The notes below the pieces were generated by a model that was given only the letters and a program-made list of their open reading frames with translations, ran no database searches and was not told the origin of the DNA. A stretch of 64,000 bases of DNA from Candidatus Omnitrophota bacterium (GTDB lineage: Bacteria > Omnitrophota > Gorgyraeia > Zapsychrales > JANLHA01): NCBI GenBank assembly GCA_020632535.1, contig JACKFJ010000005.1:200-64199 (forward strand). The letters are read 5' to 3'. Within the stretch, counting starts at the first letter, position 1. The number at the start of each line of letters is the position of its first letter. Below, piece by piece: positions 9,369-31,380 of the stretch. A program made the translations under genes and the position numbers.

Positions 9369-9395
9369 AACAGATGTTTTAACGGAGGAACTTCA

Positions 9396-10721
9396 GTGAA
9401 AAAATGTACCCTTATGTTAATGGCCGCCGTGCTTGTATTTTCTCTTCCCGTTTTTGCTAGTGAAAAATTAACTCCAGCTATGACAAACTTTGGGGCTGAA
9501 AAAGCCGGTAACAGTGACGGCACAATCCCGGAGTGGAATGGCGGAATCACAACCCCACCACAGTCCTACAAAGCAAATGGCTTTCACCCCGATCCTTTTG
9601 CCAACGATAAACCGCTATTTACTATTACCGCATCCAATTGGACACAATACAAAGACAAACTATCGGCCGCGCATCAAATGATGTTTGAAACATATCCGGA
9701 TTATCAAATCCCAGTTTACCCCACCCGTCGCAGCGCTTCTACTCCTGATTTTGTTTATGAAGCGCTCAAGTTTAATGCCGAAAATGCGCAATTGACATCT
9801 GATGGCAATGATATCAGCGGTGGCAGAATCACAAGCCCTTTTCCCGTCCCAACAAATGGCCTTGAAGCAATTTGGAATCATTTGCTTCGATACCGCGGCC
9901 AGTCACTTGTACGTAAAGAAGAAGCTGTTGCAGTCGCATCAAAAAATCATTTTATTGTCGCGTCTGGATACAGTTCGATTTTGTTTCCATATAGTTTGCC
10001 GGGAAGTTCATTCGACTCACCGGAGGACACACTCGCATACTATAAACAGAAATTATTTTCTCCGCCGCGTTTAGCTGGAACCTTACTTTTAGTTCATGAA
10101 ATGCTCGATAAAGTAAAAGAAAAAAGACGTTCTTGGCTATATAACCCCGGACAACGCCGAGTCAGCCGCGCGCCATTTATCAATTATGATACTTACGCAC
10201 AGTCAAGCGAAGGCTTGCGCACTTACGATCAATTTGACATGTTTAACGGAGCCACCGACCGCTATAATTGGACACTCGAAGGCAAACAAGAAATATTTGT
10301 TCCCTACAATGCTTACCGCCTTGCGAATAAAAAACTAAACAGAAAAGATATTTTGGACGCTCATTTTCTTAACTCAAATTTTACTCGTTATGAATTGCAT
10401 CGTGTTTGGAAAGTTAGCGCTGTTCTCAAAGAGAACACAAATCATATTTATGCTCGACGAGTATTTTATCTCGATGAGGACAGCTGGCAAATTCTTATCT
10501 GTGAACAATACGATGGCCGTGGAGACCTGTGGCGTTTTTCAGAAGCTCATGTCATTAATTATTATGAAATTCCTGTCCTGCTCTCAACAGCCGATATGCA
10601 TTACGATTTGAAATCCGGTCAATACCTCATGGAGTGGCAAATCGAACCTATAAAGTTTAATACAAACTTAAAAGTTGATGACTTTACTCCCGAAACACTC
10701 AGACAGGAAGGTATTCGCTAG
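9396..10721 (+). CDS. DUF1329 family periplasmic protein (LolA-like, lipoprotein-sorting-like)
   Basis: GTG start preceded by GGAGG. Signal peptide LVFSLPVFAS. Its size (441 aa) and its partnership with DUF1302, BNR and RND genes are typical of DUF1329. Confidence 0.75.
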   Translation: MKKCTLMLMAAVLVFSLPVFASEKLTPAMTNFGAEKAGNSDGTIPEWNGGITTPPQSYKANGFHPDPFANDKPLFTITASNWTQYKDKLSAAHQMMFETYPDYQIPVYPTRRSASTPDFVYEALKFNAENAQLTSDGNDISGGRITSPFPVPTNGLEAIWNHLLRYRGQSLVRKEEAVAVASKNHFIVASGYSSILFPYSLPGSSFDSPEDTLAYYKQKLFSPPRLAGTLLLVHEMLDKVKEKRRSWLYNPGQRRVSRAPFINYDTYAQSSEGLRTYDQFDMFNGATDRYNWTLEGKQEIFVPYNAYRLANKKLNRKDILDAHFLNSNFTRYELHRVWKVSAVLKENTNHIYARRVFYLDEDSWQILICEQYDGRGDLWRFSEAHVINYYEIPVLLSTADMHYDLKSGQYLMEWQIEPIKFNTNLKVDDFTPETLRQEGIR

Positions 10722-10958
10722 GAATATCGAAACATCCTATTTATGAGCCTTGCCCAAACCCATAAAAAGATTTTCTTTGCATTAAACCAAAGATTTCTCC
10801 GCCAAACTCTCCCCCGGAAACGGGAAATGGATCTTGTCATGATGGATCGCGAATAGGTCGATCAATATAAGAAAATGGTGACAACGGCGGATTAGCTGTG
10901 TTGTAGATATTATTATCAATAAAAAGGATAACTCTCTAAGCGGCAAGTAAATATCTTA

Positions 10959-11903
10959 ATGCGGCAACTATCTACATACATCTCTTCCCTCGGGGTCGTC
11001 ATATTCTTGGCGGCAACATTTCTTTTCTGGGAACCTTCTTTCAAGCATCCTCCTAAAATTGATGAGTCAAATCGCGGCGCTTTCTTTGATATTACAAAAT
11101 ATAAAGAAATTGTCATCGCCGTCGGTGAACATGGACGAATCTTATACTCTTGCGATGAAGGTAAAAGTTGGATATCGGCAATTAGCCCGACCAATTTATC
11201 TCTGACAAGTATTTTTCTTCTCAATGACAATCTCGGCTGGATCACAGGATATGACGGCATAATACTCAAAACGGAAAATGGCGGTTTGACATGGACATCT
11301 GTCAAGAATCCCTCAACCACAGAACAACCGCTTTTTGCAATATGGTTTAAAAATGAAAATGTCGGCTTAGCTGTTGGAGCTGACAGCATGGTTTATCGTA
11401 CGAATGATGGTGGGGCACATTGGCAATCGCAAAAACTTAACATGCAAGCACATTTATATTCAATATCGGAAACGGCTGATGGAACAGTTTGGATCAGCGG
11501 CGAAAATCAAGCGCTTTATTTCAGCAAAGATTTAGGAAAAACATGGAAAAAGTTAAAACCTCCCTTTCTAACTTCATTTTTTGGTTCAATTACACTGTCT
11601 GATCAACTACTGACTTTCGGATTACGCGGCCGCGTTTGCACATGGAAAACTTCAGGTTTGGTTGAAAGCAAAACAGAAAGCGACGAAAGCCTTTCGGCTG
11701 GCACGCATCTTGAAGATGGGCGAATTGTCCTAGCTGGTCAACGAGGCAAAATCTTAGTCGGTCAAAAAGATGGTAAATTATTTCATTCTTTAAAAACGCC
11801 TATTAAGGAAGATATTGCTTCTCTCATTGAAACATCGAATTCTCTAATTATAGTCGGAAATTCTGGTATTTACCGTATACTTAAGTCAGAGTTGGGGTTA
11901 TAA
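10959..11903 (+). CDS. BNR/Asp-box beta-propeller protein (Ycf48-like)
   Basis: Four Asp-box motifs (SCDEGKSW, TENGGLTW, TNDGGAHW, SKDLGKTW) after an N-terminal hydrophobic segment. Confidence 0.75.
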   Translation: MRQLSTYISSLGVVIFLAATFLFWEPSFKHPPKIDESNRGAFFDITKYKEIVIAVGEHGRILYSCDEGKSWISAISPTNLSLTSIFLLNDNLGWITGYDGIILKTENGGLTWTSVKNPSTTEQPLFAIWFKNENVGLAVGADSMVYRTNDGGAHWQSQKLNMQAHLYSISETADGTVWISGENQALYFSKDLGKTWKKLKPPFLTSFFGSITLSDQLLTFGLRGRVCTWKTSGLVESKTESDESLSAGTHLEDGRIVLAGQRGKILVGQKDGKLFHSLKTPIKEDIASLIETSNSLIIVGNSGIYRILKSELGL

Positions 11904-11904
11904 A

Positions 11905-13968
11905 ATGTTTAAGCAATACATTCTTCCGCCATTATTACTCGTCGCAGGTCTTACGCTTCTAAGCTTTAAGCCAATCAATATTATTCCAGAATCTGCCCCA
12001 TTGATATCATCACGAGAAATTCAAAATAATTTCATACAATACAAGGAATTTGATCAACGCAATCAAATTTCAGTTATCTTAACGAATACACAGGGTGATA
12101 TTTTTAATCCTACTTTTTTTAAAACGCTGAAAGATTTGGCAGAAGAAATCTTTTATCTACCGGGTGTTGATCGCACCAACATACTTTCATTATTTACAAA
12201 TAATTTGAGCTTCAGAGAAGTCATTGAAGACGGTTTTGCCGGCAAAATGATAATTCCCGAGAATTTTTCAAATTCACAAGCGGAATTTGACGCGGTTAAA
12301 AACAATCTATCCAAATCTCTTTACGTCGGAAAACTTGTCTCTTATGACTATCGCAGCGCTCTGATTTCTGTCCCCTTCTATCGTGCCGAACAAGGCCTGG
12401 AATTGACCCGTCGAATTGAACAACTTTTGCCAAGCAGCGGGAATATTCAATCTTCGCTTCTGGGCATGACACCTTTTATGATCGAAATTAAGAAACAACT
12501 CTCACATTCCATGTTTGCCCTTATCTTCTCATGGTTCATCAGCGTTATTCTTTTTAGTCTAATAACACGCAAAGCTTCCAGTATCTTTTGCCTAATAATT
12601 GCGCCATTGTTGACCATTACACTACAATGCGTCCCCTTTGGCATTTTTAATTTCCCCATCCACCCTTATGTTTTTCCGGTAATCATAACAACTTTTATTT
12701 TATCCTTTACAGATATCGCATGGATCACCTTAAACACGACGAAAATTGATACCCGCGTACCCATATGGTTAACATTACTACCGACCATGAGTCTTTGTTT
12801 TCTGGGTTCGGATTGGGCTTATCAAATTCTCTATCTTGCCATCAGCGGCACTGTTTCCTTATTTATTGTACGGTATTTCTTTTTAAATTCGATTCCCACA
12901 ACTCTAAAAGGATTCAAAATTTCAATAATTTCTTCTGGATTTAAACTATCCCGTGTAATCCGAAAAATAATAATGTTATCCCTATTAATTGCGGGACTGA
13001 CACTTGCGTCCAAAATTGTCATTGGTAATCTCGGAGCTGGATCTTCCATGCTAAGAAATGATAGCCCTTATCTTGAAAAACAACTGTCAATGACCAAAAA
13101 CTTCGCGTTTGCACTCGACTCAATATTAGTTCTAGCAATTTCTCCCGAGAAAGGTTGTACCGATCCAGCCACCGTTAGTGTCGCGGAAGAATTTCACTGG
13201 TCTTTGTCAAATATTCCCGGCGTCCGTACAATATGGAGCCTTGGGAATACTGTAAAGAAAATAAATGCCTTCTATCATGAAAATTATCTCAAGTGGATCA
13301 CTGTCCCACGAGAAAAAGCAACATTGATCGCAAGTACAAGCGTCCTTGATTCACGCAGTGGCTTACTCGATCAATCGGGATTAATTTTCCCAATAACCAT
13401 ATTTCTCGAGAATCATAATCCACAAGTTCTTACGCAAATTTATGAGGGAATTAAAAGTTTTGAATCACCAGACAATCTATTATCCTTTAAAATTGTGGGA
13501 GGAACTGCAGGTACCGAGGCAATTATCAATGAAATGATAAAAGCGTCTTGGAAAATCATTTTACTGATACTTCTCCTTACTTTTTTAGTGATCACACGTT
13601 TTTTCTTTCACGCGCATACCACAATCAATTTATGTTTTCTGTATATAACAATCTTATCGTTGACGCTGGGACTCAGTGTCGTACTTGGCATCAATTTATA
13701 TATTGATACAATCGCAGCGCTCGTTTTATCGTCATGCGTATGCTTTTATTTCTTATGGACTTTGCAAAACATGATCGCGTCACGAAAAAAACTGTCGCAC
13801 ATTCTACTTCTTTTATGCGTGTTAATTTCAGGAGGGCTTTTTTCACAAGTAAATTTTATTTTTCGAACTGCAGGGATCGCTGAATGTATGCTGATTATAA
13901 CTTGGTTGGTAGGATTTAACTTGTTTCCGGTAAAAGAAGATCTTCGGGCGAGACACGCAAAGACTTAA
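11905..13968 (+). CDS. RND superfamily (MMPL-type) transporter
   Basis: 687 aa with two blocks of multiple TM helices, each preceded by a soluble loop. The ATG lies 1 nt after the BNR gene stop. Confidence 0.7.
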   Translation: MFKQYILPPLLLVAGLTLLSFKPINIIPESAPLISSREIQNNFIQYKEFDQRNQISVILTNTQGDIFNPTFFKTLKDLAEEIFYLPGVDRTNILSLFTNNLSFREVIEDGFAGKMIIPENFSNSQAEFDAVKNNLSKSLYVGKLVSYDYRSALISVPFYRAEQGLELTRRIEQLLPSSGNIQSSLLGMTPFMIEIKKQLSHSMFALIFSWFISVILFSLITRKASSIFCLIIAPLLTITLQCVPFGIFNFPIHPYVFPVIITTFILSFTDIAWITLNTTKIDTRVPIWLTLLPTMSLCFLGSDWAYQILYLAISGTVSLFIVRYFFLNSIPTTLKGFKISIISSGFKLSRVIRKIIMLSLLIAGLTLASKIVIGNLGAGSSMLRNDSPYLEKQLSMTKNFAFALDSILVLAISPEKGCTDPATVSVAEEFHWSLSNIPGVRTIWSLGNTVKKINAFYHENYLKWITVPREKATLIASTSVLDSRSGLLDQSGLIFPITIFLENHNPQVLTQIYEGIKSFESPDNLLSFKIVGGTAGTEAIINEMIKASWKIILLILLLTFLVITRFFFHAHTTINLCFLYITILSLTLGLSVVLGINLYIDTIAALVLSSCVCFYFLWTLQNMIASRKKLSHILLLLCVLISGGLFSQVNFIFRTAGIAECMLIITWLVGFNLFPVKEDLRARHAKT

Positions 13969-14971
13969 CCGCGCACTCATCGGCATAACCGACTCGCAAC
14001 AATGTTAAAATTTCCTGAGGCTTAATCCCCAGATGATATTCAACATTTCTTTCCACTTGATCAATTGTATCCCTTTCTTTCTTCGAAAAGAAATCGCGGC
14101 TGATTTTGGTAATATCGACGCTTGACGCGACGATATGAGAACTTAATCCATCCTTATTTAAAAGATTGATAATTTTCTGAATATCCATCCAATCCCGAAC
14201 AAGAACTTCCGCAGAAGTATCTGATTCCTTAAACGCAATAAGCAGTGCTGTTTCGCGCAGTAATTTTCTATGCGATTTTTCAGCCACCTTCTGAGCCAGA
14301 ATACTTTGACCGACCGTCCTCCTAAAAATCTCATTTCGACTAAATCGTAAAAATTGCTGCGAAAAAGATGGGATTTCTAGAACCCGTAAATCTAATCCAC
14401 GACGGCTTTTCTCTGCTTCTTCTGGGGTATAACATAACTGATGAATAATTTCCTTGTTCAGCCCTGAATTTCCCATACGAATTCTCTCTAGCGCGGCACA
14501 ATTATTGATAATAGCCTCACTACTGGTAACATTCAAAACCGCACGGGTTTCACCACCAAAGAGATTCCGAATCTTTTCGAAAACACTAGGTGACAAATAA
14601 TCATCCCGATGTTTTTTACGGTTCGTGTAACGAGACATCACATGCGCAATGTCATACTGAGGAAGAGTTGAAGACTTTTGAAATCTTACTTCACACAAAG
14701 CTTGGTATAAATCAGTTTCACGTGTTTTCAAACGATATGTCATTTCATATTGAAAGTGCTTCGCTCCCTCAGAGAGATTTTGTAATAAAGGCCCTAGCGA
14801 ATAAAAAGGGACTTCTTTAAAATTTTCAAGAAAACCACCCCTGCTATATATTTCGAAAATATAAAGAACATCATTTTTAAATTGAAATTGCCATGGTTGC
14901 CCATTGTAAGGCGATGCCGCCTTAAGGCCAACTCTTAGAATTTCTATTATGTCTTTACGATCCATATGCAA
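13916..14971 (-). CDS. nitroreductase-family protein (two-lobed, Acg-like)
   Basis: The N-terminal LKAASPYNGQPWQF motif is typical of nitroreductase-fold proteins, and the ~350 aa length suggests the duplicated-domain type. The likely real start is ATG at 14965. The 3' end overlaps the RND gene by 53 bp. Confidence 0.55.
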   Translation of the reverse strand: MHMDRKDIIEILRVGLKAASPYNGQPWQFQFKNDVLYIFEIYSRGGFLENFKEVPFYSLGPLLQNLSEGAKHFQYEMTYRLKTRETDLYQALCEVRFQKSSTLPQYDIAHVMSRYTNRKKHRDDYLSPSVFEKIRNLFGGETRAVLNVTSSEAIINNCAALERIRMGNSGLNKEIIHQLCYTPEEAEKSRRGLDLRVLEIPSFSQQFLRFSRNEIFRRTVGQSILAQKVAEKSHRKLLRETALLIAFKESDTSAEVLVRDWMDIQKIINLLNKDGLSSHIVASSVDITKISRDFFSKKERDTIDQVERNVEYHLGIKPQEILTLLRVGYADECAVKSLRVSPEDLLLPETS

Positions 14972-20593: not shown

Positions 20594-22933
20594 TTATATT
20601 CTCAAATTTCTTAACCTTAATGAATTGCCAATCACAGAAACCGAGCTAAACGCCATAGCCGACCCAGCAATAATTGGGCTTAAGAGAATTCCGAAAAACG
20701 GATATAGAATTCCAGCCGCAATTGGCACACCCAAAGCATTATAAATAAACGCGAAGAAAAGATTCTGACGAATATTTAACATGACAGAATGGCTCAAAGT
20801 CAACGTTTTGACGATTCCACTTAGATCTCCTTTAACCAAAGTCATTCCCGCGCTTTCGATGGCGACATCCGTCCCTGTTCCCATGGCAATACCCACTTGA
20901 GCTTCTGCCAGCGCTGGAGCATCATTGATCCCATCTCCCGCCATCATGACTAAAGCACCTTGCTGCTTAAACTCTTTAACAATTTTCTGCTTATCCTGCG
21001 GGTCCAATTCTGCTCTAACATCATCAATATTCAACTCTTTGGCGATGGCCTGTGCGGTTTTCTTATTGTCACCAGTAAGCATAATGACCTTGCATCCTTT
21101 CTTATGCAAAGCCTCGATCGCTTGAGCAGTTGTTTTTTTAATAGGATCTGAAATCCCTAAAATTCCGATAACACTTTTCTCTACCGCTACCCAAACGACT
21201 GTTTGAGCTTTCCGCTGTAATTCAATAGATTTGTTTTGTAAATTCTCTGGTAAACTGCCGCTGATCTCCTCAATGAACTTGCCTTTACCCAAACTGATCA
21301 TCTTTCCATTGAGCTTGCCCTTAACACCACCTCCAGTTACAGATTCAAAATCCACAACATTGATCAGCGCGATGCTCTGCTCTTTTGCATAATCAATAAC
21401 CGCCCGAGCTAGTGGATGTTCGCTGAATTGTTCTAATGATCCAGCCGTCATCAATAACTCTTTTTCATTAATCCCTTGAGCTGGAATAACAGTAGTAACC
21501 CGTGGCTTTCCTTCAGTGAGCGTTCCGGTTTTATCAATAAACACATGCGTAATTTTCTCTGCCCTTTCAATAGCTTCCGCGTTCTTAATCAATATTCCAG
21601 ATTGAGCCCCCCGTCCAACACCTACCATAATCGACATTGGCGTAGCCAGCCCTAATGCACAAGGGCAGGCGATAATCAAAACAGCAATGGCATTGACAAT
21701 GGCATAGGCAATTGATGGTTGCGGTCCCCAAAAAAACCAAACTATGAAAGTCACAATCGAAATCAAAATAACTGCTGGCACAAAGTATCCAGCGACCTTG
21801 TCGGCTAATCCTTGTATCGGCGCTCGACTGCGCTGAGCCTCAGAGACCATATGAACGATTTGGGACAACAATGTTTCAGAGCCAATCTTCTCTGTTCTCA
21901 TTACAAAAGTTCCTGTCTGATTAACAGTAGCTCCAATAACTTTATCACCAACTCGCTTTTCGACTGGAACAGGCTCTCCTGAAATCATTGATTCGTCAAT
22001 CGTGCTTTTCCCTTCTGTAATTATTCCATCAAGAGGGACTTTCTCTCCCGGACGCACTCGCAGCAAATCGCCTTTTTGAATTTGATTAACTGGGACATTT
22101 TCTTCCTTGCCATTTTTAATGTGATGCGCGCTCTTTGCCGCCAGTCCCAATAAAGCTTTAATAGCCTGCCCAGTTTGCGCCCGCGCTTTGGCTTCAAGAT
22201 ATTGTCCAAGAATAACTAAAACAGTGATACCGACAGCCGCTTCAAAATACAGACTTGGCATTCCGTTCATTGTAAATGAAGAAGGAAACAGGTGGGGGAA
22301 CAAAACAGCTACCAAACTATAAAAGTAAGCCGATCCAACACCCATTGCAATCAGTGTAAACATATTAAGACTGCGATGAACAATCGACTTCCACGCTTTT
22401 GTAAAAAAGAACCCGCCCGCCCAGAAAATAACAGGTGTAGCTAATATTAACTGCGCCCAGACGGAAAAATCGTGAGTTATAAACTCAAATTTTAACCCCG
22501 GAATCATTTCTTCCAACGCTAAAAAAACAACCGGTAAACCGAAGGACAAACTTCCCCAAAATTTTCGCCCTAATGCCTTGATCTCATTTCCTTCAGTATT
22601 ATCCTCCAAGCTGACATTCTTAGGCTCTAAAGCCATCCCACATTTTGGGCAATCCCCGGGCTGATCCTGCTCAATTTCAGGATGCATTGGGCAAGTATAA
22701 CCACTCTTTGACGAAACGACTTTCTTCTCTTCCTGTTTTTTTGCTCCTGTTGAACAACAATGATGCAAACCACTTCCAGAATTTTTCTGATCTGACTTTA
22801 AAATTGATTCCTTTTGATTTAAGAATTTATCTTGGCAGCGTTGACTACAAAAATAAACATCTTTGCCTTCATGATACACATGCAAAGCACTTTTTTCGTC
22901 CACATTCATTCCACAAATTGGATCTTTAACCAT
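20594..22933 (-). CDS. copA: copper-translocating P1B-type ATPase
   Basis: CPC motif ([13 protein letters not shown]), DKTGTLT, SEHPLA, TGDN and [10 protein letters not shown]. The N-terminus has a TRASH/YHS-like [20 protein letters not shown] and [14 protein letters not shown]. Strong SD AAGGAGAAGGG. Confidence 0.95.
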
Positions 22934-22997
22934 CCCTTCTCCTTTGCTTTTTATATTATACGATTTTTTATACTTAACCCAATCAACCGAATAATAT

Positions 22998-23013
22998 GTA
23001 TATACACATATTA
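22998..23013. promoter_or_regulatory. candidate MarR operator box 1 (GTATATACACATATTA)
   Basis: 16-bp sequence identical to 23518..23533, containing the palindrome GTATATAC. It lies 12 bp after the marR stop and about 40 bp upstream of a TATAAT (22960..22955) that precedes copA. Confidence 0.4.
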
Positions 23014-23024
23014 GTTAAAAAAAT

Positions 23025-23483
23025 TTACCTCTTTTGCATCACATTTAGAATCCCATTCAAATCTGTAATAAAATCAGCCATACGCTTTACTCCCACTGCT
23101 TTAAGGACTTCTTGATGTTTCTCTTGCCAAATGCGCGATGCTTTTTGTAAAATCTTCCCACCCTTTTCAGTTAACATGATGGCTTTTTCCCTGCGATCCG
23201 CACAATCACAAGGTTTGATTAAACCATCTTTCTTTAAGGGAAGCAAATTTCGACTGACCGTTGTACGATCCGTAGACACCGCCTCTGCTAACTCATTAAT
23301 ATTAGCAGAATGCAATTCTTGAATATTTGACAAAATCATGATTTGGCTTGGTGTATATCCAAGACTTCGAAGAGCCTCATCGTAGATCTGTGTTATCATT
23401 CGTGAAGCTTTTCGAATATTAAAACACAAACACTGATTGTCCTCGACCAACCTTTTTATTTTATCCTTTTTGTCATACAACAT
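23025..23483 (-). CDS. MarR family transcriptional regulator
   Basis: Winged-HTH region (ILSNIQELHSANINELAEAVSTDRTTVSRNLLPLKKDGLI). ATG at 23483 is preferred because of the AAGGTGG SD. The longest ORF starts at GTG 23510. Confidence 0.85.
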   Translation of the reverse strand: MLYDKKDKIKRLVEDNQCLCFNIRKASRMITQIYDEALRSLGYTPSQIMILSNIQELHSANINELAEAVSTDRTTVSRNLLPLKKDGLIKPCDCADRREKAIMLTEKGGKILQKASRIWQEKHQEVLKAVGVKRMADFITDLNGILNVMQKR

Positions 23484-23516
23484 ATTTACCACCTTTCTTA
23501 ACATCAACACAATAAG

Positions 23517-23545
23517 AGTATATACACATATTATGCCGATGTCAA
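23517..23545 (-). promoter_or_regulatory. marR promoter overlapped by operator box 2
   Basis: Minus strand reads TTGACA (23545..23540), a 17-nt spacer, then TATACT (23522..23517). The 16-bp box (23518..23533) covers the spacer and the -10. Confidence 0.55.
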
Positions 23546-23570
23546 GAATTTCTTGTTACGATTCTTAAAT

Positions 23571-24824
23571 CTAATTTGTTGCCTTTTTAACGACGACATC
23601 GGCAACCGTTCCTTTTGGATGTGGGTAGTCGCCGGGTTGATCGTAATCTTTCAAATGATCTCGAACCATAAGTACCGTAAACATCCCTCCCATACCCACT
23701 GGGCCAAACTGTCCTTCTCCACCCATCATAGCAAGCGTATTTTCCGGCCCCTTCATTTTCATATAATTCATTTCATCCATACCATGTTCGCCCATTGCCA
23801 TGTATCCGGGAACCAGATCACGGACTTTGTCTTTGACATCATCCTGATTAACACCCAAAACATTGGCGGCATCATGACCCATCGCATTCATAGGATGATG
23901 ACGGCGATGACAATGCAGCGCCCAGTCACCTGCGACATCAGCAACAAATTCAATATCACGCGTCTGTCCCGGAGCAACTAGTACAGTTGTTTCGGGCCAT
24001 TGAGCAGAAGCAGGAATCTGCCCTCCATCAGTCGCAACAACTTTAAAACTATATCCATGCAAATGAATCGGATGTGACTCCTGAGCCACATTACCAATTC
24101 TAATCCGCACGCGTTCTCCAGACTTGACAACCAAAGGAGCGGTTCCAGGAAAAGCTCTACTATTAAACGTAAAAATATTAAAATCCGTCATAATGCTTGG
24201 ATTAGGGGTTTTTGTTCCCGGCTCAACAAACCATTCATTTAAAAATAGAGCAAAATCACGATCAATTTTGGGATCTACCGGATTTTTAGGATGAGAAATT
24301 AGAAATCCCATTGTTCCCAAACCCATTTGCACCATTTCATCACCATGTGAATGATACATAAACGTTCCGTGCTGTTTCATACGAAATTCATACTTAAACG
24401 TTTGACCCGGCTCAATAGATTTTTGCGTTAAGCCCGAAACCCCATCCATTCCACTTGGGAGAAATACTCCATGCCAATGAACTGCAGTCCCTTCCGGTAA
24501 TTCATTCTTCACATAAATTCGTAATAAATCTCCCTCGACAACTTCAATCGTCGGACCCGGAGTCTGCCCGTTATAGCACCAAGCATTAATAATCATCCCC
24601 GACGCAACTTCATGTTGACACGCTCCCACTGTTATTTGAAAGACTTTGGCTCCATCTTTATCCCGTGTCCACGGCATCGTGGAACCATTAGGCGTAATAA
24701 CCGGAGTATACGGCAATTTTTCAGTATATTTTTTCTGAACCTTGTCTTGTGCGTATACCGCAACACTAAAAACAAGACCTACTAAAATTAATATCATTAC
24801 AAAAATATTTTTCTTACTAAACAT
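23571..24824 (-). CDS. multicopper oxidase (CopA/PcoA/CueO-like)
   Basis: Copper-ligand motifs HWHG, HSHG, HPIHLHG and HCHRRHH, plus a Met-rich segment (GYMAMGEHGMDEMNYMKMKG..MMGG..GMGGM). Has a signal peptide. The SD GGAGGA lies inside the end of the TolC gene. Confidence 0.9.
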   Translation of the reverse strand: MFSKKNIFVMILILVGLVFSVAVYAQDKVQKKYTEKLPYTPVITPNGSTMPWTRDKDGAKVFQITVGACQHEVASGMIINAWCYNGQTPGPTIEVVEGDLLRIYVKNELPEGTAVHWHGVFLPSGMDGVSGLTQKSIEPGQTFKYEFRMKQHGTFMYHSHGDEMVQMGLGTMGFLISHPKNPVDPKIDRDFALFLNEWFVEPGTKTPNPSIMTDFNIFTFNSRAFPGTAPLVVKSGERVRIRIGNVAQESHPIHLHGYSFKVVATDGGQIPASAQWPETTVLVAPGQTRDIEFVADVAGDWALHCHRRHHPMNAMGHDAANVLGVNQDDVKDKVRDLVPGYMAMGEHGMDEMNYMKMKGPENTLAMMGGEGQFGPVGMGGMFTVLMVRDHLKDYDQPGDYPHPKGTVADVVVKKATN

Positions 24825-24826
24825 AT

Positions 24827-26230
24827 TTATCCTCCATGATGTTTGTGATTCATATCAATAGGTTGATGATCCTTTTTATTCAATGGCGTTATGACTAATT
24901 CATAATCCAGCTTAGTGCCCACTGCATTCTCAAGCTCAATACGTGAAATCCAATAATTCTTTAATGCGTCCACATACTCTTTCTTGGTTTCTAACTCAGC
25001 TTGCTTAGATTCAAGCAAATGGAAGACATCCGTCAGCATAAAATTATAATGATATAACGTTTCTTTGATCATTTGCTGATACAATGGCATTGCCTCCTGA
25101 TAAGCTTCCACTATTTGACGATTTGTCATCAAATTTAGATATCCTAGATGCACTGCAAGCAATACTTCCTGTTCCATAACATCTAATTGATGTTTCGCTG
25201 TTTCAATCGATGCTTTAATTCCCGCGCGCTGGGCTTGATTGCGATTAAACAAAGGTACTTGACCCTCAACGACAGCCCCTTTTAACGTATGGCCACTAGT
25301 TTCCTTTTCTTGGTTATAGCCTACTTCCAGATCCGGTAAAAAACCTGCAGCTGCCAAATTCTGCGACTGCTCTAAATGCTTGATTTCCTGCCGTTTCATC
25401 AATAAATCCAAACGGCGATCAAGAGCCTTTTTTTCGAGCTCCTCGACGACCAGATCTTCTTTAGGCAAATCCGGTATTTGTAACATTTCTTCCATAAAAA
25501 ACTGATTTACCGTTAACCCTAACATCGTCCTTAACCGCTCGGTAAACATTCGGGTTTCCTGCTTAGTTTTTAACTGTTCGATTTTTGCTTTCTGAAAAAT
25601 GGCTTGAGCCTCAGCCATGTTGAGGGTATTAATGTTCCCTGCCTCCTTCTGTCGGCGGGCAATTTCTAGGGAAGCTTCTTGAGCCTTAAAATGATCTGCT
25701 GCCAATGCCTGTTTATGCATAGCTGTCAGCCACTCTAAATATGATAATCGAACCTCTTTAATAAAATCAGTCATCTGATGTGCCGTTTCATACTGTGAGA
25801 CTTTAAATTGTGTCCCTGCTATCTTTTTACGCAACGGCCAAAACAAAATATCAAAAACATCCTGTTTAATTTCAAACTCCTTATTACGCTTAACCCCTCC
25901 TTCATTAGAGGTACGTGTTTTAAATGACAATGTGGGATTACGTAAAATACCAGCTTCACGCATATCTGCTTCAGAAACACCCAATGACGATAATTGCGCT
26001 TTAATTACAGAACTATTTAAAAACGCAATTGCCACTGCCGCATCTTCACTTAACGATTGCGATAATAAACTCTCAACATCTTGTTGATCGCCGGCAGCCT
26101 TTGCCTCATATCCAGTTTGTTCTTGTACCAAATTCTTAACTTTTGCTTGATTCTTCTGATCAGACGCCTGCGTAAGATCTGTCATTATTAAACCAGCCAA
26201 TAATATCAAAATTGTTATTTTCATTTTCAT
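24827..26230 (-). CDS. TolC-family outer-membrane efflux protein
   Basis: 467 aa with a signal peptide and two long coiled-coil/OEP-like repeats. It stops 2 nt before the MCO start codon. Confidence 0.8.
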   Translation of the reverse strand: MKMKITILILLAGLIMTDLTQASDQKNQAKVKNLVQEQTGYEAKAAGDQQDVESLLSQSLSEDAAVAIAFLNSSVIKAQLSSLGVSEADMREAGILRNPTLSFKTRTSNEGGVKRNKEFEIKQDVFDILFWPLRKKIAGTQFKVSQYETAHQMTDFIKEVRLSYLEWLTAMHKQALAADHFKAQEASLEIARRQKEAGNINTLNMAEAQAIFQKAKIEQLKTKQETRMFTERLRTMLGLTVNQFFMEEMLQIPDLPKEDLVVEELEKKALDRRLDLLMKRQEIKHLEQSQNLAAAGFLPDLEVGYNQEKETSGHTLKGAVVEGQVPLFNRNQAQRAGIKASIETAKHQLDVMEQEVLLAVHLGYLNLMTNRQIVEAYQEAMPLYQQMIKETLYHYNFMLTDVFHLLESKQAELETKKEYVDALKNYWISRIELENAVGTKLDYELVITPLNKKDHQPIDMNHKHHGG

Positions 26231-26354
26231 ATCCTTTGCTTTTCCTCTGCAACTTTGTCCTATTAAAGTTGAACAAAAAAACCTAGAAATTCTAATCAGC
26301 CAAAATCAAACACCTCTGGCCTTTCAGATCTAAGGTCAATTGATCAAATTTGAT

Positions 26355-26777
26355 CTAAAGTCTGAGATTTGAAAATTTTAAATAGATAGGAATTGCTGCA
26401 TGCTGTAAGTAGTCTCGCAAAGGAGGCCCCTGCGATTGATTTACTAATGAAGCGATAAGAAGCGTATTATTGGAACGCAAGTCAGCAAGGAAATCCTTGG
26501 CTAACATTTGCCGAAAAGTCGAGACAAAAATTATGTCGGTAGATTGTGCGGATAGAAAACTAAAATGTTTTGCGCAAGAACAGTCTTTATCACCGTTAGA
26601 GTGTTGATGTGTAGAATGTTGGGTTTCACCTACGTCCTGATGATGATGTTCTATTACGACACCTTCATCCGCGAAAGAACCTCTCTCCAAACAACAACAA
26701 AAAGTGATTACAAAGAAAAGCGGAATAAGCAAAGATGAACTGATAATTCTTTTATATATTCGTCGCATTAACAGCAA
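26355..26777 (-). CDS. His/Cys-rich membrane-anchored small protein (putative metal binding)
   Basis: N-terminal TM with CCC, then EHHHQDVGETQHSTHQHSNGDKDCSC. Family not recognised. The start (TTG 26777 or ATG 26768) is uncertain and has no SD. Confidence 0.45.
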   Translation of the reverse strand: MLLMRRIYKRIISSSLLIPLFFVITFCCCLERGSFADEGVVIEHHHQDVGETQHSTHQHSNGDKDCSCAKHFSFLSAQSTDIIFVSTFRQMLAKDFLADLRSNNTLLIASLVNQSQGPPLRDYLQHAAIPIYLKFSNLRL

Positions 26778-26909
26778 TTTTGCATAACTAAATTAATTAG
26801 TCAAGTGAAAATTCAAAACGAGCTCTTCAAGTTTCTTTAAAGGAGGACTTGAAAAACAAATAGATGCACCATATTCCTACTTATCGACACTGTTGCTCGC
26901 ACCTCATTT

Positions 26910-27593
26910 TTATACCATTTCTTTCCTTTTATCCTTTAGAAATTTTTGTAGCCAATAAACAAAAGCAAACAATAAGACTGCTAAGCCGACCTTCCAGATA
27001 TTCTTGGGATTTGTCAACACACTCATAAAGGACGATCCAAAATATACCAAAACAAATGAGCCCGGGACAATACCGATAAATGTCGCCCAGAAATAATCAC
27101 GAAACTTTACTTTTGTTAAACCAAGACCAAGATTTTGGATATCCCAAGGAAGATTTGGAATCAGACGGATCAGAAGCACTGTTACAAACCCACGCCTTTC
27201 AATAGCTTCATCAATATTGCCCATTTTTCCTTTAATTAATTTTTCAACAGCTCCGCGTGCCAAATACCGCGAAATCAAAAACTCTCCAACCGCTGACAAA
27301 TTGGCTGCGATCAATAAATAAATTAAACCTTTAACGCCCCAAATCACACCGGCGGATGCTGAAAGCAAAGCAGCTGGAAAAAAAATCAGCGGACGAAGAA
27401 TATAAAACACAATATAAATGACCGGACCCCAAATACCGAATCCTTCAATCGTTTCTTTAAACTTCTCCGGCGTGATGTTGGAAAAATCAATATGCAACGA
27501 TCGCACCAACATAAATATTGCGACGAGAACAACAATCCCTATTAACAATTTTAACAATGGATTTCTTTTCAAGGAAACACCTTTAAGATACAA
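26910..27593 (-). CDS. TVP38/TMEM64 (SNARE-associated, DedA-superfamily) membrane protein
   Basis: Polytopic protein. The RLIPNLPWDIQNLGLGLTKVKFRDYFWATFIGIVPGSF motif is typical of this family. Possible TTG start at 27572 with an AAAGGTG SD. Confidence 0.85.
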   Translation of the reverse strand: MYLKGVSLKRNPLLKLLIGIVVLVAIFMLVRSLHIDFSNITPEKFKETIEGFGIWGPVIYIVFYILRPLIFFPAALLSASAGVIWGVKGLIYLLIAANLSAVGEFLISRYLARGAVEKLIKGKMGNIDEAIERRGFVTVLLIRLIPNLPWDIQNLGLGLTKVKFRDYFWATFIGIVPGSFVLVYFGSSFMSVLTNPKNIWKVGLAVLLFAFVYWLQKFLKDKRKEMV

Positions 27594-27596
27594 AAT

Positions 27597-29018
27597 TTAT
27601 TTTATTAAATAGGTGGCAATCTTAACCAAAGGATTTTGTGCCGCCAGATAAATGCCACTGACTTTCTTGTTGATTTGTGCCAATGTGGGATAAACATGCA
27701 TTGCTTTTTCGATTTTTCCAATATCAATCTTCGCGTTAATCACCGCGACCCATTCATGAATCAATTCACCGGCGTGAAGACCAACAATTTGCGCTCCAAT
27801 AAGTCGCCTTTTTGCGTCTGTTAATATTTTAACAAATCCATTTGTTGCACTCTCGGCCAATGCTCTATCCAGATAAGCAAAATCATATTTATAGACTTTA
27901 TATTCTATCCCAGCTTTCTTGGCCATCATTTCATTGAGCCCAACGGAGGCGACTTCCGGATCCGTAAATGTACACCATGGAACATTGGAGTAATCGGTTT
28001 TTAAAATTGGGAATGGCAGTTTGGCATTTAATGCCGCAATTCGCGCATCATATTCAGCGACATGCGTAAATAAAAATCCGCCCTTACAATCTCCACACGC
28101 ATAGATATTCTTAGCTGTTGTCTGCAAGTACCGATTAACTTGAATTCCCTGCGGCGCATACTCCACACCCGCTTTTTCTAAATCCAAGCCACCGACACCC
28201 GGCTGTCGACCCGTAGCTACCAAAAGGGTTTCAGCTTCTATGCTTTTTGCTGTGCCATCATAATCAACGGTAAGTTTGATCGAATCGCCAACCTTTTCCA
28301 CTTTTTGAGCTTTAGCCTTGGTCAAGAATTCAATTCCTTCTTTTGCAAGAAGATCATGAATATAACGTGAAACATCCAAATCTTCTTTTGGCATAATACA
28401 ATCCGCGGACTCAACAACAGTAACTTTTGACCCCAAACGCGAGAAAGATTGTGCCATTTCGATACCAATTGGACCGCCACCCAAGACAATTAAAGACGCA
28501 GGCAATTTATTAAGTGAGAATATTTCAACATTGGTAACATAAGAAACATCTTTTAATCCTTCAATCGGTAGGATACGAGCAGAAGACCCTGTCGCTAAAA
28601 TAAACGTTTTACTGGTGATCTTTATTCCGCTTAACACAATCGTGTGATGATCTAAAAACTTTGGTGATCCAAATTTTGTGTCGATATTGTATTGCTTTTT
28701 AAAAGTCTCGGGAGAATCATGCTTTTGTATTCCTCCGATAATACTTTGAATACGATCCCTCACTTTAGAAAAATCAACCGGCGCAATATTTACTTTAGGC
28801 AGACCATATTGTTCTGCCTGCTTTATTAAATGATAAACGTGCGCACTTTTAATCAGTGATTTTGAGGGCACGCAACCAAAGTGGAGACAATCACCTCCTA
28901 ATTTTTCTTCCTTCTCGACAATCAAAGTTTTGGAACCAAGTTGTGCTGACCATATGGAAGATGTCAAACCGGCCGCTCCTGCACCGATCACAATGACATC
29001 GTATTGAAAATCCGCCAT
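27597..29018 (-). CDS. FAD-dependent pyridine nucleotide-disulfide oxidoreductase (dihydrolipoyl dehydrogenase / MerA-like)
   Basis: YDVIVIGAGAAG, redox CxxxxC (GGDCLHFGCVPSK), second Rossmann LIVLGGGPIGIEMAQ and C-terminal HVYPTLAQ. No C-terminal Cys pair. The longest ORF begins at GTG 29033. Confidence 0.9.
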   Translation of the reverse strand: MADFQYDVIVIGAGAAGLTSSIWSAQLGSKTLIVEKEEKLGGDCLHFGCVPSKSLIKSAHVYHLIKQAEQYGLPKVNIAPVDFSKVRDRIQSIIGGIQKHDSPETFKKQYNIDTKFGSPKFLDHHTIVLSGIKITSKTFILATGSSARILPIEGLKDVSYVTNVEIFSLNKLPASLIVLGGGPIGIEMAQSFSRLGSKVTVVESADCIMPKEDLDVSRYIHDLLAKEGIEFLTKAKAQKVEKVGDSIKLTVDYDGTAKSIEAETLLVATGRQPGVGGLDLEKAGVEYAPQGIQVNRYLQTTAKNIYACGDCKGGFLFTHVAEYDARIAALNAKLPFPILKTDYSNVPWCTFTDPEVASVGLNEMMAKKAGIEYKVYKYDFAYLDRALAESATNGFVKILTDAKRRLIGAQIVGLHAGELIHEWVAVINAKIDIGKIEKAMHVYPTLAQINKKVSGIYLAAQNPLVKIATYLIK

Positions 29019-29033
29019 AATCCAACCTTTCAC

Positions 29034-29705
29034 TTAACGAATATTACGGTATAACTGCCCAAGATATTTTGGTGAAATACCGACAAAGAAACAAAAAGTT
29101 AGAAACCAATTTAACAACATTGTTTTTAACACCCCACCATGTTCCCATCGCCGCGGCAAAACAATTGCAGAATTTTGAAGAACTATCGTTCTTCCTAATC
29201 GTCGTAATTTTTTAGAAAAAATCACATCTTCAAATAAAGAAACCGCTTGAAAACCGCCAATCTGTTCAAAAATATCCCGCCGAACAAAAATAGCCTGATC
29301 GCCATAAAAAATCTTGAATAATTTTGCCCGTAAAGTTCCGGACATTTCAATACAACGATACAACCATTTGTTCGAATCAATTTTATGAGTAAAGCACCCC
29401 CCAACATGATTCAGTGAAACCTGCTTCTCTACGGCTTGCAGTCCTTTGGTATCAATCACGCAATCCGCATGCAAAAAAAGGAAGATATTCCCTTTCGCGG
29501 CAGCAGCCCCGGCATTCATTTGCAATGCTCTTCCCCGCGGGGAAATCATCGTTTTAACAGGAAATTTATGAACAATCTCCAATGTTCTATCATGACTCTG
29601 ACTATCAATAACAATGACTTCAATTGCATCCCCATACGGCAATGAAACCAGCGTTCTCTCGATCGCCCTTTCTTCATTTAAAACAGGAATAATAACAGAA
29701 ATCAC
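29034..29705 (-). CDS. family 2 glycosyltransferase (rSAM/selenodomain-associated transferase 2 type)
   Basis: ISVIIPVLNEE near the N-terminus, VIVIDSQSHDRT and FLHAD. The preferred GTG start at 29705 overlaps the radical-SAM stop as GTGA. The ORF track extends it to 29756. Confidence 0.8.
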   Translation of the reverse strand: MISVIIPVLNEERAIERTLVSLPYGDAIEVIVIDSQSHDRTLEIVHKFPVKTMISPRGRALQMNAGAAAAKGNIFLFLHADCVIDTKGLQAVEKQVSLNHVGGCFTHKIDSNKWLYRCIEMSGTLRAKLFKIFYGDQAIFVRRDIFEQIGGFQAVSLFEDVIFSKKLRRLGRTIVLQNSAIVLPRRWEHGGVLKTMLLNWFLTFCFFVGISPKYLGQLYRNIR

Positions 29706-30658
29706 CGCAAGGCTCCTTGACAGCTTGATCCCGCTCCGGCGGTGCAACCAAAACAATGATTGGCTGTTCTAACTTGCCAATTCTCCAAGTCTTTCTTTGT
29801 AACATCAAAAACCGTAAACGGTTTACGATTGCCCATTCCCATTCCCAACATTTGATTAAAATCACAGTCAAATAATTTCCCGTCCCAGCTAACGTTCAAA
29901 GTATTGCGACACATCAAGCCGTCTAACGTGTGAGGATTAAAATTATTAATCAATAATTCCATGTAACTCTCAAGCTGATTAAAAGCCTTGAGATATTTGG
30001 CATAACGAGTGATAGGCATATTGGTAATGGTGTAAAGTTTATGGAAGGCAATACCAAAATCATTTTTTAACCGTTGTTTATAATCATTTTCCAATTGTTC
30101 CTGTGCTGGCGGCAAATGTGCTCCGACGGGATTATAAACGAGATTTAAATTCAACTCTTCATCCGGCAGCCCATAACCTAAGTTGTTTAACTTTTGTAAT
30201 GCTTTTACAGATTTACTAAACGTCCCATTGCCTCGCTGTTGATCGACATTATTCTCGGAATAACAGGGTAATGATGCAATAATCTCAACGTGATGTTGTG
30301 CAAGAAAATCCCCTAAGCCTTCCATGCCTTTTTCAAAAAGTATCGTCAAATTGCAGCGATCAATAATGTGAATGTCTCTCGTAAAAGCTTCAGCAACCAA
30401 GTACCGAAAATGAGGATTCATCTCGGGCGCGCCACCTGTTAAATCTAAAGTCTGGGGTTTCAAATCATCCATCAAAGCGACAATCGCTTCCGCTGTTTTC
30501 CAATTCATGTTTTCTTTTGTTTTGGTCGGCCCAGCCTCCACATGACAATGCGAGCATGTCAAATTACACAATTTGCCGACATTAACCTGAAGAATCTCGA
30601 TCGATGATTTTCTCAAATCATAAAAATGCTCAACCAATTTTGCTTGAAAACGATTCAT
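29702..30658 (-). CDS. arsS: radical SAM/Cys-rich domain protein (ArsS-type)
   Basis: CNLTCSHCH (Cx3Cx2C) near the N-terminus and the C-terminal Cys-rich tail HCFGCTAGAGSSCQGAL, which is characteristic of the radical SAM/Cys-rich (seleno)protein family. Here it is the Cys (TGT) version. Confidence 0.8.
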   Translation of the reverse strand: MNRFQAKLVEHFYDLRKSSIEILQVNVGKLCNLTCSHCHVEAGPTKTKENMNWKTAEAIVALMDDLKPQTLDLTGGAPEMNPHFRYLVAEAFTRDIHIIDRCNLTILFEKGMEGLGDFLAQHHVEIIASLPCYSENNVDQQRGNGTFSKSVKALQKLNNLGYGLPDEELNLNLVYNPVGAHLPPAQEQLENDYKQRLKNDFGIAFHKLYTITNMPITRYAKYLKAFNQLESYMELLINNFNPHTLDGLMCRNTLNVSWDGKLFDCDFNQMLGMGMGNRKPFTVFDVTKKDLENWQVRTANHCFGCTAGAGSSCQGALR

Positions 30659-31257
30659 GATGCTCCCGTAAGTTTGATTTCATCTAAATCTTCTAATATC
30701 GACAATGCTTTACATTTTAATCGCAAATTCTTTATGGCTTGATACGTCTGTGACAAAACTTCACTCGTGCTCCAATTGATCCCGACAAATAATTGAGACT
30801 GCTTTGAAGTCAATCCAATTAAATAATATCCTCCATCTTTAGCCGGCCCGACAACCACATCTGCGTCTTTGAGTACTATAAGACTTTGTTTAACAATTGC
30901 TGTCGTCAAATTCAAAGTATCACTCCCGCACACAACAACTCGCTTATAATCCCGCTCAAATGCCCAATCAAAAGCATTTATCAAGCGATCACCCAACCCC
31001 AAACCACTCTGAGGGATATATTGATCGGCATCTGGAAACCATTGCCGCACCTTATCATGAACCTCCGGTGGATCAAAAACAACAATCAAATTAGCCTCTC
31101 GACATTCTCGAAGAACAGAATAATTCTGCTCAGCCAATTGTTGATATAAACGTGCTGCTTTTTGATCGCCAATTGTTTTTGCTAAACGCGTCTTGACCTT
31201 ACCGGGAACTGGGTATTTAACAAAAAGCAACATCGCTTGCCTCATGTTATCTTTCAT
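30655..31257 (-). CDS. DUF2064 nucleotidyltransferase-like protein (rSAM/selenodomain-associated transferase 1 type)
   Basis: LLFVKYPVPGKVKTRLA motif. ATG at 31257 has a GGAG SD. Its stop overlaps the radical-SAM ATG as ATGA (30655..30658). Confidence 0.75.
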   Translation of the reverse strand: MKDNMRQAMLLFVKYPVPGKVKTRLAKTIGDQKAARLYQQLAEQNYSVLRECREANLIVVFDPPEVHDKVRQWFPDADQYIPQSGLGLGDRLINAFDWAFERDYKRVVVCGSDTLNLTTAIVKQSLIVLKDADVVVGPAKDGGYYLIGLTSKQSQLFVGINWSTSEVLSQTYQAIKNLRLKCKALSILEDLDEIKLTGAS

Positions 31258-31380
31258 GAAAACTCCAATCAGATCAAACCTATTAATCAATATGTCAGAT
31301 AGGTATTAGTCTTTGTAAAATCCAAATCCTTACAAAGTTCTTAGTTATATAAATGGACCAACATCAACCGAGGAGTATTT

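Follow-up and report, generated by a model that had tools for sequence, protein, structure and literature searches.

An arsM-less ArsS operon with a disulfide reductase/TVP38 pair in an Omnitrophota bacterium: a likely reduced derivative of a larger organoarsenical operon

The 64,000-nucleotide stretch of contig JACKFJ010000005.1 that we analysed here (the window), from the metagenome-assembled genome of a Candidatus Omnitrophota bacterium, carries a group of five genes around the radical S-adenosylmethionine (SAM) enzyme ArsS. Both the listing of open reading frames (ORFs) and direct reading of the sequence place five consecutive ORFs on the minus strand between positions 26910 and 31257. The operon begins with a TIGR04282/DUF2064 gene (30655..31257; 200 aa from ATG 31257, with an alternative TTG start at 31290), followed by the gene of ArsS (29702..30658), which has a Cys-rich C-terminal DUF3641 domain and is the Cys form of the enzyme, not the selenocysteine (Sec) form. 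Next come a TIGR04283 glycosyltransferase family 2 (GT2) gene (29034..29705; 223 aa, GTG start) whose product has one C-terminal hydrophobic segment, an NF004991-like gene for a class I FAD/NAD(P)H disulfide oxidoreductase (27597..29018; 473 aa) and a TVP38/TMEM64 gene for a polytopic membrane protein of the DedA superfamily with a VTT domain (26910..27572; 220 aa, TTG start). ArsS, GT2 and TVP38 are already present in GenBank under these names, and the window proteins are identical to the entries MCB9772195 ('ArsS'), MCB9772194 and MCB9772192 (TVP38/TMEM64), respectively.

A preliminary description of this DNA had reported the five packed minus-strand genes together with the motifs CNLTCSHC, HCFGCTAGAGSSCQGAL, KYPVPGKVKTRLA, ISVIIPVLNEE and GGDCLHFGCVPSK, all of which are present, and had described the operon as translationally coupled. 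Two of the junctions are overlaps: an ATGA overlap (30655-30658) joins DUF2064 to ArsS and a GTGA overlap (29702-29705) joins ArsS to GT2. At the third junction, the GT2 stop codon TAA (29034-29036) is immediately followed by GTG 29033, and ATG 29018 lies 15 nt past the stop with the Shine-Dalgarno-like sequence AAAGG in front of it. The 473-aa reductase form that starts at ATG 29018 was picked by gene callers in the Logan copy of the contig and in relatives, and this start is likelier than GTG 29033. At the fourth junction, TTG 27593 comes 3 nt after the reductase stop (27597-27599), and the NCBI start of the 220-aa TVP38 protein, TTG 27572, leaves a 24-nt spacer that contains AAAGG. Genuine 4-nt overlaps thus occur at two of the junctions and short spacers, of roughly 15 and 24 nt, at the other two; a GGAG Shine-Dalgarno sequence precedes ATG 31257 of DUF2064. 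Because 4-nt overlaps are common in operons, the tight packing by itself is unremarkable; what goes beyond chance is that the five-gene block is kept as a unit across differing genomic contexts. Scans for sigma-70 promoters and intrinsic terminators between 26200 and 31500 gave nothing above shuffled expectation. Rfam had no match in the whole window and hence indicated neither a riboswitch nor a leader; at gathering thresholds, positions 1-64000 contained no RNA family, tRNA families included.

Searches with profile hidden Markov models (HMMs) place the three upstream proteins above the curated NCBIfam cutoffs of the families to which they had been assigned beforehand. The DUF2064 protein, whose stop codon overlaps the ArsS start, scored 191.7 bits against TIGR04282 (cutoff 134) and also matched PF09837. 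It has a CofC/MobA-like nucleotidyltransferase fold, resembles CofC and aligns with PDB 3cgx, a 'putative nucleotide-diphospho-sugar transferase' (E=3e-32); its K-x-K-T-R-L motif is, as we take it, reminiscent of nucleotidyltransferases. GT2 reached 225.1 bits against TIGR04283 (cutoff 182), with a GTG start that overlaps the ArsS stop and a hydrophobic segment at residues 192-210. ArsS matched TIGR04167 over positions 2-303 of 303 with 447.8 bits (cutoff 300) and contains the Pfam domains PF04055 and PF12345 (DUF3641; 187.9 bits) as well as the radical SAM motif Cx3Cx2C (C31, C35, C38). Residues C250, C265, C302, C305 and C313 are conserved across 53 homologues and the window protein, which carries the consensus residue at 76 of the 76 columns that are at least 95% conserved, 8 Cys among them. 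A comparison of ArsS from 27 ArsM-adjacent with 26 ArsM-less loci yielded zero discriminating conserved columns. Since no conserved column splits the two groups, the ArsS sequence suggests no altered substrate. Four other proteins of 431-509 aa (P0315, P0316, P0333 and P0337) combine ArsM-type methyltransferase domains with PF12345 in one chain, and such an ArsM::DUF3641 fusion suggests that DUF3641 could be a separable arsenical-binding or hand-off domain.

The reductase contains PF07992 (Pyr_redox_2) and PF02852 (Pyr_redox_dim). Its best NCBIfam match is NF004991 with 464 bits, under the cutoff of 620 and with the N-terminal ~35 profile positions missing; the ArsS-linked reductase homologue of one sampled locus (L041) exceeds this cutoff with 719 bits. 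On these scores, the window protein is a divergent relative of the NF004991 (PRK06370.1-3) subfamily of FAD-containing oxidoreductases and not a certified member. It is 36-42% identical to ArsS-neighbouring reductases of other phyla and has CLHFGC as its redox disulfide. Two better-known identities were considered and rejected. The score against the MerA family TIGR02053 was 375.1 bits (cutoff 454.45), the C-terminus PLVKIATYLIK contains no Cys at all, let alone a Cys pair, and no NmerA/HMA domain is present. Against the Lpd (E3) family TIGR01350 the protein scored 401.3 bits (cutoff 408.8), the corresponding motif is HVYPTLAQ and no E1/E2 genes adjoin the operon. In the dinucleotide fold, the second beta-strand terminates in Glu (VTVVE), which presumably indicates use of NADH. 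The FAD-binding GD site reads C-G-D-C (YACGDCKGG), a motif specific to the Omnitrophota reductase clade. TVP38 scored 92.2 bits against PF09335 (cutoff 33.9) and has multiple hydrophobic segments, as expected of a polytopic VTT protein. It is homologous to the TVP38 parts of TVP38::reductase fusions that adjoin ArsS elsewhere, which would place it in the COG0398 subgroup. Among COG0398 DedA proteins, a PF07992/PF02852 oxidoreductase is the commonest fusion partner (PMC10127716).

Neighbourhoods were compared at two levels, in close relatives and in a broad sample (compared loci are numbered L hereafter). For the sample, 80 ArsS loci were drawn from GTDB species representatives and family HMMs were run on their six-frame translations; 78 loci were scored, and 44 had full flanks of at least 5 kb on either side. 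Among the close Omnitrophota relatives, the five-gene order is identical in L081 (ArsS 91% identical to that of the window) and L083 (77%), where the surroundings differ. L092 (ArsS 77%, reductase 82% identical) retains the order GT2-reductase-VTT, and L085 (ArsS 69% identical) has ArsS-reductase-VTT-GT2 without DUF2064. Across the sample, 15-16 of the 80 loci have an NF004991-type reductase no more than 10 kb from ArsS, as do 10 of the 44 with full flanks. Fewer than 800 bp separate the two genes in 11 of 15 loci, and in about nine loci TVP38 and reductase are fused into one protein (the hit spans ~2 kb). The pair-bearing loci span at least five phyla, with hosts that include, by record title, Planctomycetota, Verrucomicrobiota, Binatia, Acidobacteriota-like bacteria, 'Deltaproteobacteria' metagenome-assembled genomes and Alpha-, Beta- and Gammaproteobacteria. 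Four of them also carry ArsM. In L009, L035 and L041 the reductase adjoins ArsS even though neither transferase is present, and Fisher tests detected no significant association of the reductase with ArsM or with the transferases in the sample (p=0.16-0.72). It is thus ArsS itself, and neither ArsM nor the transferases, that the reductase accompanies. Reductase and TVP38 are a conserved partner of ArsS, as the preliminary description had required for its proposal to stand, and ArsS clusters have recruited the pair repeatedly. A cultured gammaproteobacterium, Microbulbifer rhizosphaerae CECT 8799 (L066, NZ_JACHWZ010000001.1, 9066-14444), carries the string MTAP-ArsS-TVP38::reductase-GT2-DUF2064, in which MTAP denotes a methylthioadenosine (MTA) phosphorylase, with no ArsM within 10 kb.

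The pair is at the same time an autonomous two-gene module that is also found without ArsS. Homologues of the reductase with 52-59% identity were encoded in all three sampled contexts by a VTT-then-reductase pair divergent from a sigma70_r2/r4 gene of the extracytoplasmic function (ECF) type, and there was no ArsS inside 8 kb of these three pairs. Beside the sigma gene lies a gene for a small protein of 84-100 aa with the ZAS motif HxxxCxxC, i.e. an anti-sigma factor. The sigma factors of these contexts are 52-54% identical to the one encoded next to the operon of L092, which itself matches TIGR02943 with 174.9 bits (cutoff 162.2). The window operon would be linked to this system by a predicted ECF-type promoter on the minus strand (31309..31334; TGTAAGG-N16-GAC), the 3' end of which lies 50 nt upstream of ATG 31257 and the exact core of which has this single match in the window. 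Its extended form reads TTGTAAGG-N15-AGACTAAT, the form across loci TTGTAAGG-N15-(C)GACTAAT, and the bipartite motif can also be written TTGTAAGG-N15-CGACTAAT; TTGTAAGG is common to the intergenic regions of ECF-linked reductase/TVP38 pairs. Including the window copy, we found nine instances. Three precede VTT in the standalone pairs L088, L089 and L090, and a second copy in L089 precedes the anti-sigma gene. L092 has one each before MTAP and DUF547, the Oleiphilus ArsS locus L073 has one before its sigma gene, and the remaining two stand in front of DUF2064 in L081 and in the window. From this motif we infer that an ECF/ZAS pair has the window operon in its regulon; the pair would be encoded elsewhere because the window has no homologue of it.

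No arsM is linked to ArsS in the window, a point on which the preliminary description was right and in which the locus departs from that of Synechocystis. At tblastn E<=1e-3, the 64 kb contain no homologue of ArsM, PiT, MTAP, DUF547, YHS, redoxin or ECF sigma proteins, nor of AhpD-like proteins (TIGR04169-type, and the protein labelled CMD in L092). Three protein searches located arsM on the contigs of many relatives and found none on the 141-kb window contig or on the contigs of L081 and L083. ArsM-like genes flank ArsS in 27 of the 78 scored loci and, in addition, in Omnitrophota relatives. L085 reads sigma-antisigma-ArsM-PHO4-ArsS-reductase-VTT-GT2-thioredoxin, L093 reads DUF547-u449::GT2-DUF2064-ArsM-PHO4-ArsS, and L092 reads MTAP-DUF547-u449-GT2-DUF2064-ArsM-PHO4-ArsS-CMD-YHS-GT2-reductase-VTT-redoxin. 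In a nucleotide alignment, ArsM-PHO4 and CMD-YHS of L092 map exactly onto the ATGA and GTGA overlaps of the window, respectively. In a neighbour-joining (NJ) tree of ArsS, L092, L093, L083, the window and L081 form a clade with 94.5% bootstrap support, and the ArsM-positive L093 is sister to window plus L081 with 90%. Loss of arsM-pit in the window lineage is the simplest reading, since the window ArsS nests among ArsM-bearing operons, and the absence of arsM thus looks secondary. Between window and L081, the ratio of nonsynonymous to synonymous substitution rates (dN/dS) is 0.05 for ArsS, 0.07 for VTT, 0.085 for the reductase, 0.23 for DUF2064 and 0.27 for GT2, and it is 0.07-0.12 against L083. 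Such ratios indicate that purifying selection on all five genes persisted once arsM-pit had been lost.

The MTAP protein scored 317 bits against TIGR01694 (cutoff 275), and its gene adjoins ArsS or GT2 in L010, L040, L066 and L092. The arsenosugar-type gene strings of the sister Omnitrophota lineages extend over about 14 genes in L092 (3407-15578) and over 4228-10957 in L093, and include a second TIGR04283-like GT2, an AhpD-like protein and a YHS protein. The protein u449 of L092 comprises 449 aa without a family match; in L093 it is fused to GT2 and gives a faint MptA_B signal. DUF547 recurs in 10 ArsS loci. The close homologues of the Omnitrophota ArsM-like methyltransferase include a 587-aa protein (P0299) attributed to the eukaryote Plasmodiophora brassicae, an attribution that could reflect contamination or horizontal transfer.

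Downstream of the operon lies a copper island, the proximity of which had been thought significant. L081 aligns collinearly, at about 87.5% identity, with two blocks of the window (36000-26904 and 20600-14112), and the island between these blocks (20601-26903) is a 6.3-kb indel relative to that locus. It encodes a P-type ATPase with YHS and HMBD domains, a MarR protein, a multicopper oxidase, an OEP/TolC-like protein and a His-rich protein of 140 aa. In its place L081 has a stretch of only 715 bp with an AhpC/TSA-type redoxin gene that overlaps the VTT stop, and the same redoxin follows VTT in L092; therefore, the ancestral operon probably ended with a redoxin gene. The copper island is incidental to the operon and took the place of this gene. 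The His-rich ORF at the island edge (26355-26777, minus strand) contains the stretch HHHQDVGETQHSTHQHSNGDKDCSC, has no Pfam or NCBIfam match and may encode a metal-binding protein.

The locus comprises an ArsS core and a redox pair, and we consider it probable, at roughly 60%, that it arose by reduction from a larger organoarsenical operon of the arsenosugar type and is still functional. ArsS homologues adenosylate dimethylarsenite (DMAs(III)) to 5'-deoxy-5'-dimethylarsinoyl-adenosine (DDMAA) in a redox-neutral radical reaction (PMC13598754), and the same chemistry is credited to Xue 2019 in a passage of bioRxiv 10.1101/2022.09.23.509062. Reviews assign the subsequent removal of adenine and the transfer step only to an unnamed 'nucleosidase' and an unnamed transferase. 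By analogy, we infer that the window ArsS performs this adenosylation as well and would join the 5'-deoxyadenosyl group of SAM to dimethylarsenite. An enzyme of the MTA phosphorylase type, as encoded by the relatives, could then strip adenine from DDMAA and leave arsenoribose-1-phosphate; MTAP is the candidate because DDMAA is, like MTA, a 5'-substituted adenosine and because an MTAP paralogue adjoins ArsS or GT2. The TIGR04282 protein could activate arsenoribose-1-phosphate to a nucleoside diphosphate (NDP)-arsenoribose, a role proposed because it resembles CofC and 3cgx, and the membrane-anchored TIGR04283 GT2 could transfer the arsenosugar, at the membrane, onto an acceptor such as glycerol or a lipid. 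The gene content thus suggests the pathway order ArsS, MTAP, TIGR04282 and TIGR04283.

Reductase, TVP38 and the often adjacent redoxin or thioredoxin would form a thiol-redox relay, the most likely function of which is to maintain the arsenical and its thiol carriers in the reduced state. Candidate roles are the regeneration of DMAs(III) from its oxidised form DMAs(V) and the re-reduction of dithiols that carry, or have been oxidised by, arsenicals; in addition, the pair may shift the substrate or a lipid-linked product across the membrane. Standalone pairs would be driven by the ECF sigma factor and its ZAS anti-sigma factor of the thiol-sensing type, and the entire window operon appears to be transcribed from the same kind of promoter. 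The window lineage would have lost arsM-pit and, to the copper-island indel, the terminal redoxin gene. With arsM-pit lost, dimethylarsenic must be taken up from the surroundings or be made by an arsM at an unlinked site.

Several observations weigh against this interpretation. The roles of TIGR04282, TIGR04283, the reductase and TVP38 draw on fold, context and analogy, and the genes for MTAP, ArsM and the ECF sigma factor are all absent from the window. The ArsS tree is an NJ tree of 12 taxa, one internal node of which has only 47.5% support. The ArsM-like proteins of the relatives fall under every NCBIfam ArsM cutoff (181-229 bits against 263); their top matches are all ArsM families. The Omnitrophota reductases carry Gln (HVYPTLAQ) at a position where Glu or Asp is present in the remaining aligned reductases linked to ArsS (HPYPTQAE). 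By analogy with Lpd and GR, we take this position to be that of the Glu in the His-Glu dyad, and the chemistry of the Omnitrophota enzymes may differ from that of classical disulfide reductases. Finally, the upstream regions of L083 and L085 lack the promoter motif, its degenerate form is not enriched across loci and the genome-wide count of that form is close to a rough chance estimate, so that the promoter evidence is positional only.

The preliminary description had favoured a self-contained five-step pathway that makes or exports a glycoconjugate with a heteroatom other than arsenic, such as selenium or another chalcogen. The window indeed contains neither arsM nor pit nor any ars gene, 26 of the 44 full-flank loci have no ArsM within 10 kb, and ArsM-less clusters of ArsS, GT2, DUF2064 and TVP38::reductase recur in Gammaproteobacteria (L066, L072 and L073). 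Selenoprotein forms exist in the ArsS family, and the redoxin behind VTT in L081 and L092 is weakly SelL-like (56-59 bits against a cutoff of 120). However, the window ArsS has Cys and not Sec, it nests among operons with ArsM-PiT immediately upstream, and no conserved position sets ArsM-less enzymes apart from ArsM-linked ones; moreover, reductase and TVP38 stand in the same gene strings as ArsM-PiT-ArsS in L085, L092, L004 and L040. Nor is the module self-contained, as the pair exists without ArsS and the sister operons need or carry MTAP, ArsM, PiT, DUF547, the 449-aa protein, AhpD-like and YHS proteins and a redoxin. A substrate other than arsenic consequently strikes us as quite improbable.

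A more serious, though still rather unlikely, explanation is that two unrelated modules are merely co-transcribed here and that reductase and TVP38 form a general thiol-stress or membrane-homeostasis unit of the ECF/ZAS regulon. The three standalone VTT-reductase pairs, all beside ECF/ZAS genes and away from ArsS, fit such a unit, as do the promoter motif common to both, the wide distribution of COG0398 DedA::oxidoreductase fusions and the 63 of 78 scored ArsS loci without a pair in the flanks fetched. It accounts poorly for a pair that stands directly beside ArsS in at least five phyla (below 800 bp in 11 of 15 loci), even where the transferases are missing, and that was recruited independently in varied architectures, fused or unfused and in both gene orders. 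By our estimate, such a gene would lie within 10 kb of a given gene by chance in about 1% of cases, compared with about 20% observed. We find it hardly credible that the loss of arsM-pit and redoxin left behind an operon that is degenerating and no longer works: several L092 genes are missing and the two transferases, with dN/dS of 0.23-0.27, have evolved faster than the rest of the operon, but all five ORFs are intact, the dN/dS values stay at 0.05-0.27 between two arsM-less operons and at 0.07-0.12 against L083, and the overlap junctions and the promoter motif are kept in L081.

A further, speculative proposal, to which we give limited credence, is that the arsM-less operon serves as a stand-alone salvage or detoxification pathway for dimethylated arsenic released by other microbes. 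The thiol-stress ECF/ZAS switch would sense the arsenical, TVP38 and the reductase would import DMAs(V) and/or reduce it to DMAs(III), and ArsS with the two transferases would lock DMAs(III) into a harmless arsenosugar or arsenolipid. If this were true, it would provide the first function for COG0398 DedA::disulfide-reductase fusions and would put names to the enzymes still lacking after the ArsS step, namely MTAP, the nucleotidyltransferase TIGR04282 and the transferase TIGR04283. Independently of this proposal, the comparative picture nominates the operon-encoded MTA phosphorylase, TIGR04282 and the membrane-anchored TIGR04283 GT2 as candidates for the steps after DDMAA, and connects organoarsenic metabolism, as well as an ECF/ZAS stress switch, with a DedA/TVP38-disulfide reductase pair that is widespread. 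Microbulbifer rhizosphaerae CECT 8799, being in culture, opens the module to experiments. With regard to the window alone, the gain is smaller, as its genes were already annotated and its operon is a trimmed member of a known system.

The operon shares features with several known systems. Its reductase has the same fold as MerA and dihydrolipoamide dehydrogenase, with FAD and NAD(P)H domains and a CxxxxC disulfide, but falls under the cutoffs of both and lacks NmerA, the C-terminal Cys pair and the gene context of an E3 complex. The standalone pairs recall thiol-stress regulons of the SigR-RsrA type in their ECF-type sigma factor, their HxxxCxxC anti-sigma factor and a disulfide reductase as target, whereas the window has only the promoter motif and no gene for either regulator. 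COG0398 DedA::oxidoreductase fusions (PMC10127716) comprise the same two domains, and each half of the ArsS-side fusions has its homologue among the window proteins; in the window, however, the genes are separate, in reverse order (reductase, then TVP38) and part of an ArsS operon. All three members of the 'rSAM/selenodomain-associated' set TIGR04167/TIGR04282/TIGR04283, which NCBIfam now names arsenosugar biosynthesis proteins, are encoded adjacently and above cutoff, with the differences that the window ArsS is of the Cys rather than the Sec form and that reductase and TVP38 extend the set. Compared with the arsM-arsS pathway of Synechocystis sp. PCC 6803, the window encodes an ArsS orthologue with all conserved Cys, which would be expected to convert DMAs(III) to DDMAA, but it does so in a non-photosynthetic Omnitrophota bacterium, without arsM in 64 kb and with TIGR04282, TIGR04283, a disulfide reductase and TVP38 in addition. 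In conclusion, the three-gene core is already known and annotated and the COG0398::oxidoreductase fusion is a known architecture, while the recurrent partnership of reductase and TVP38 with ArsS, its link to an ECF/ZAS promoter, the association with MTAP and the view of this operon as an arsM-less derivative appear to be undescribed in the searchable literature.

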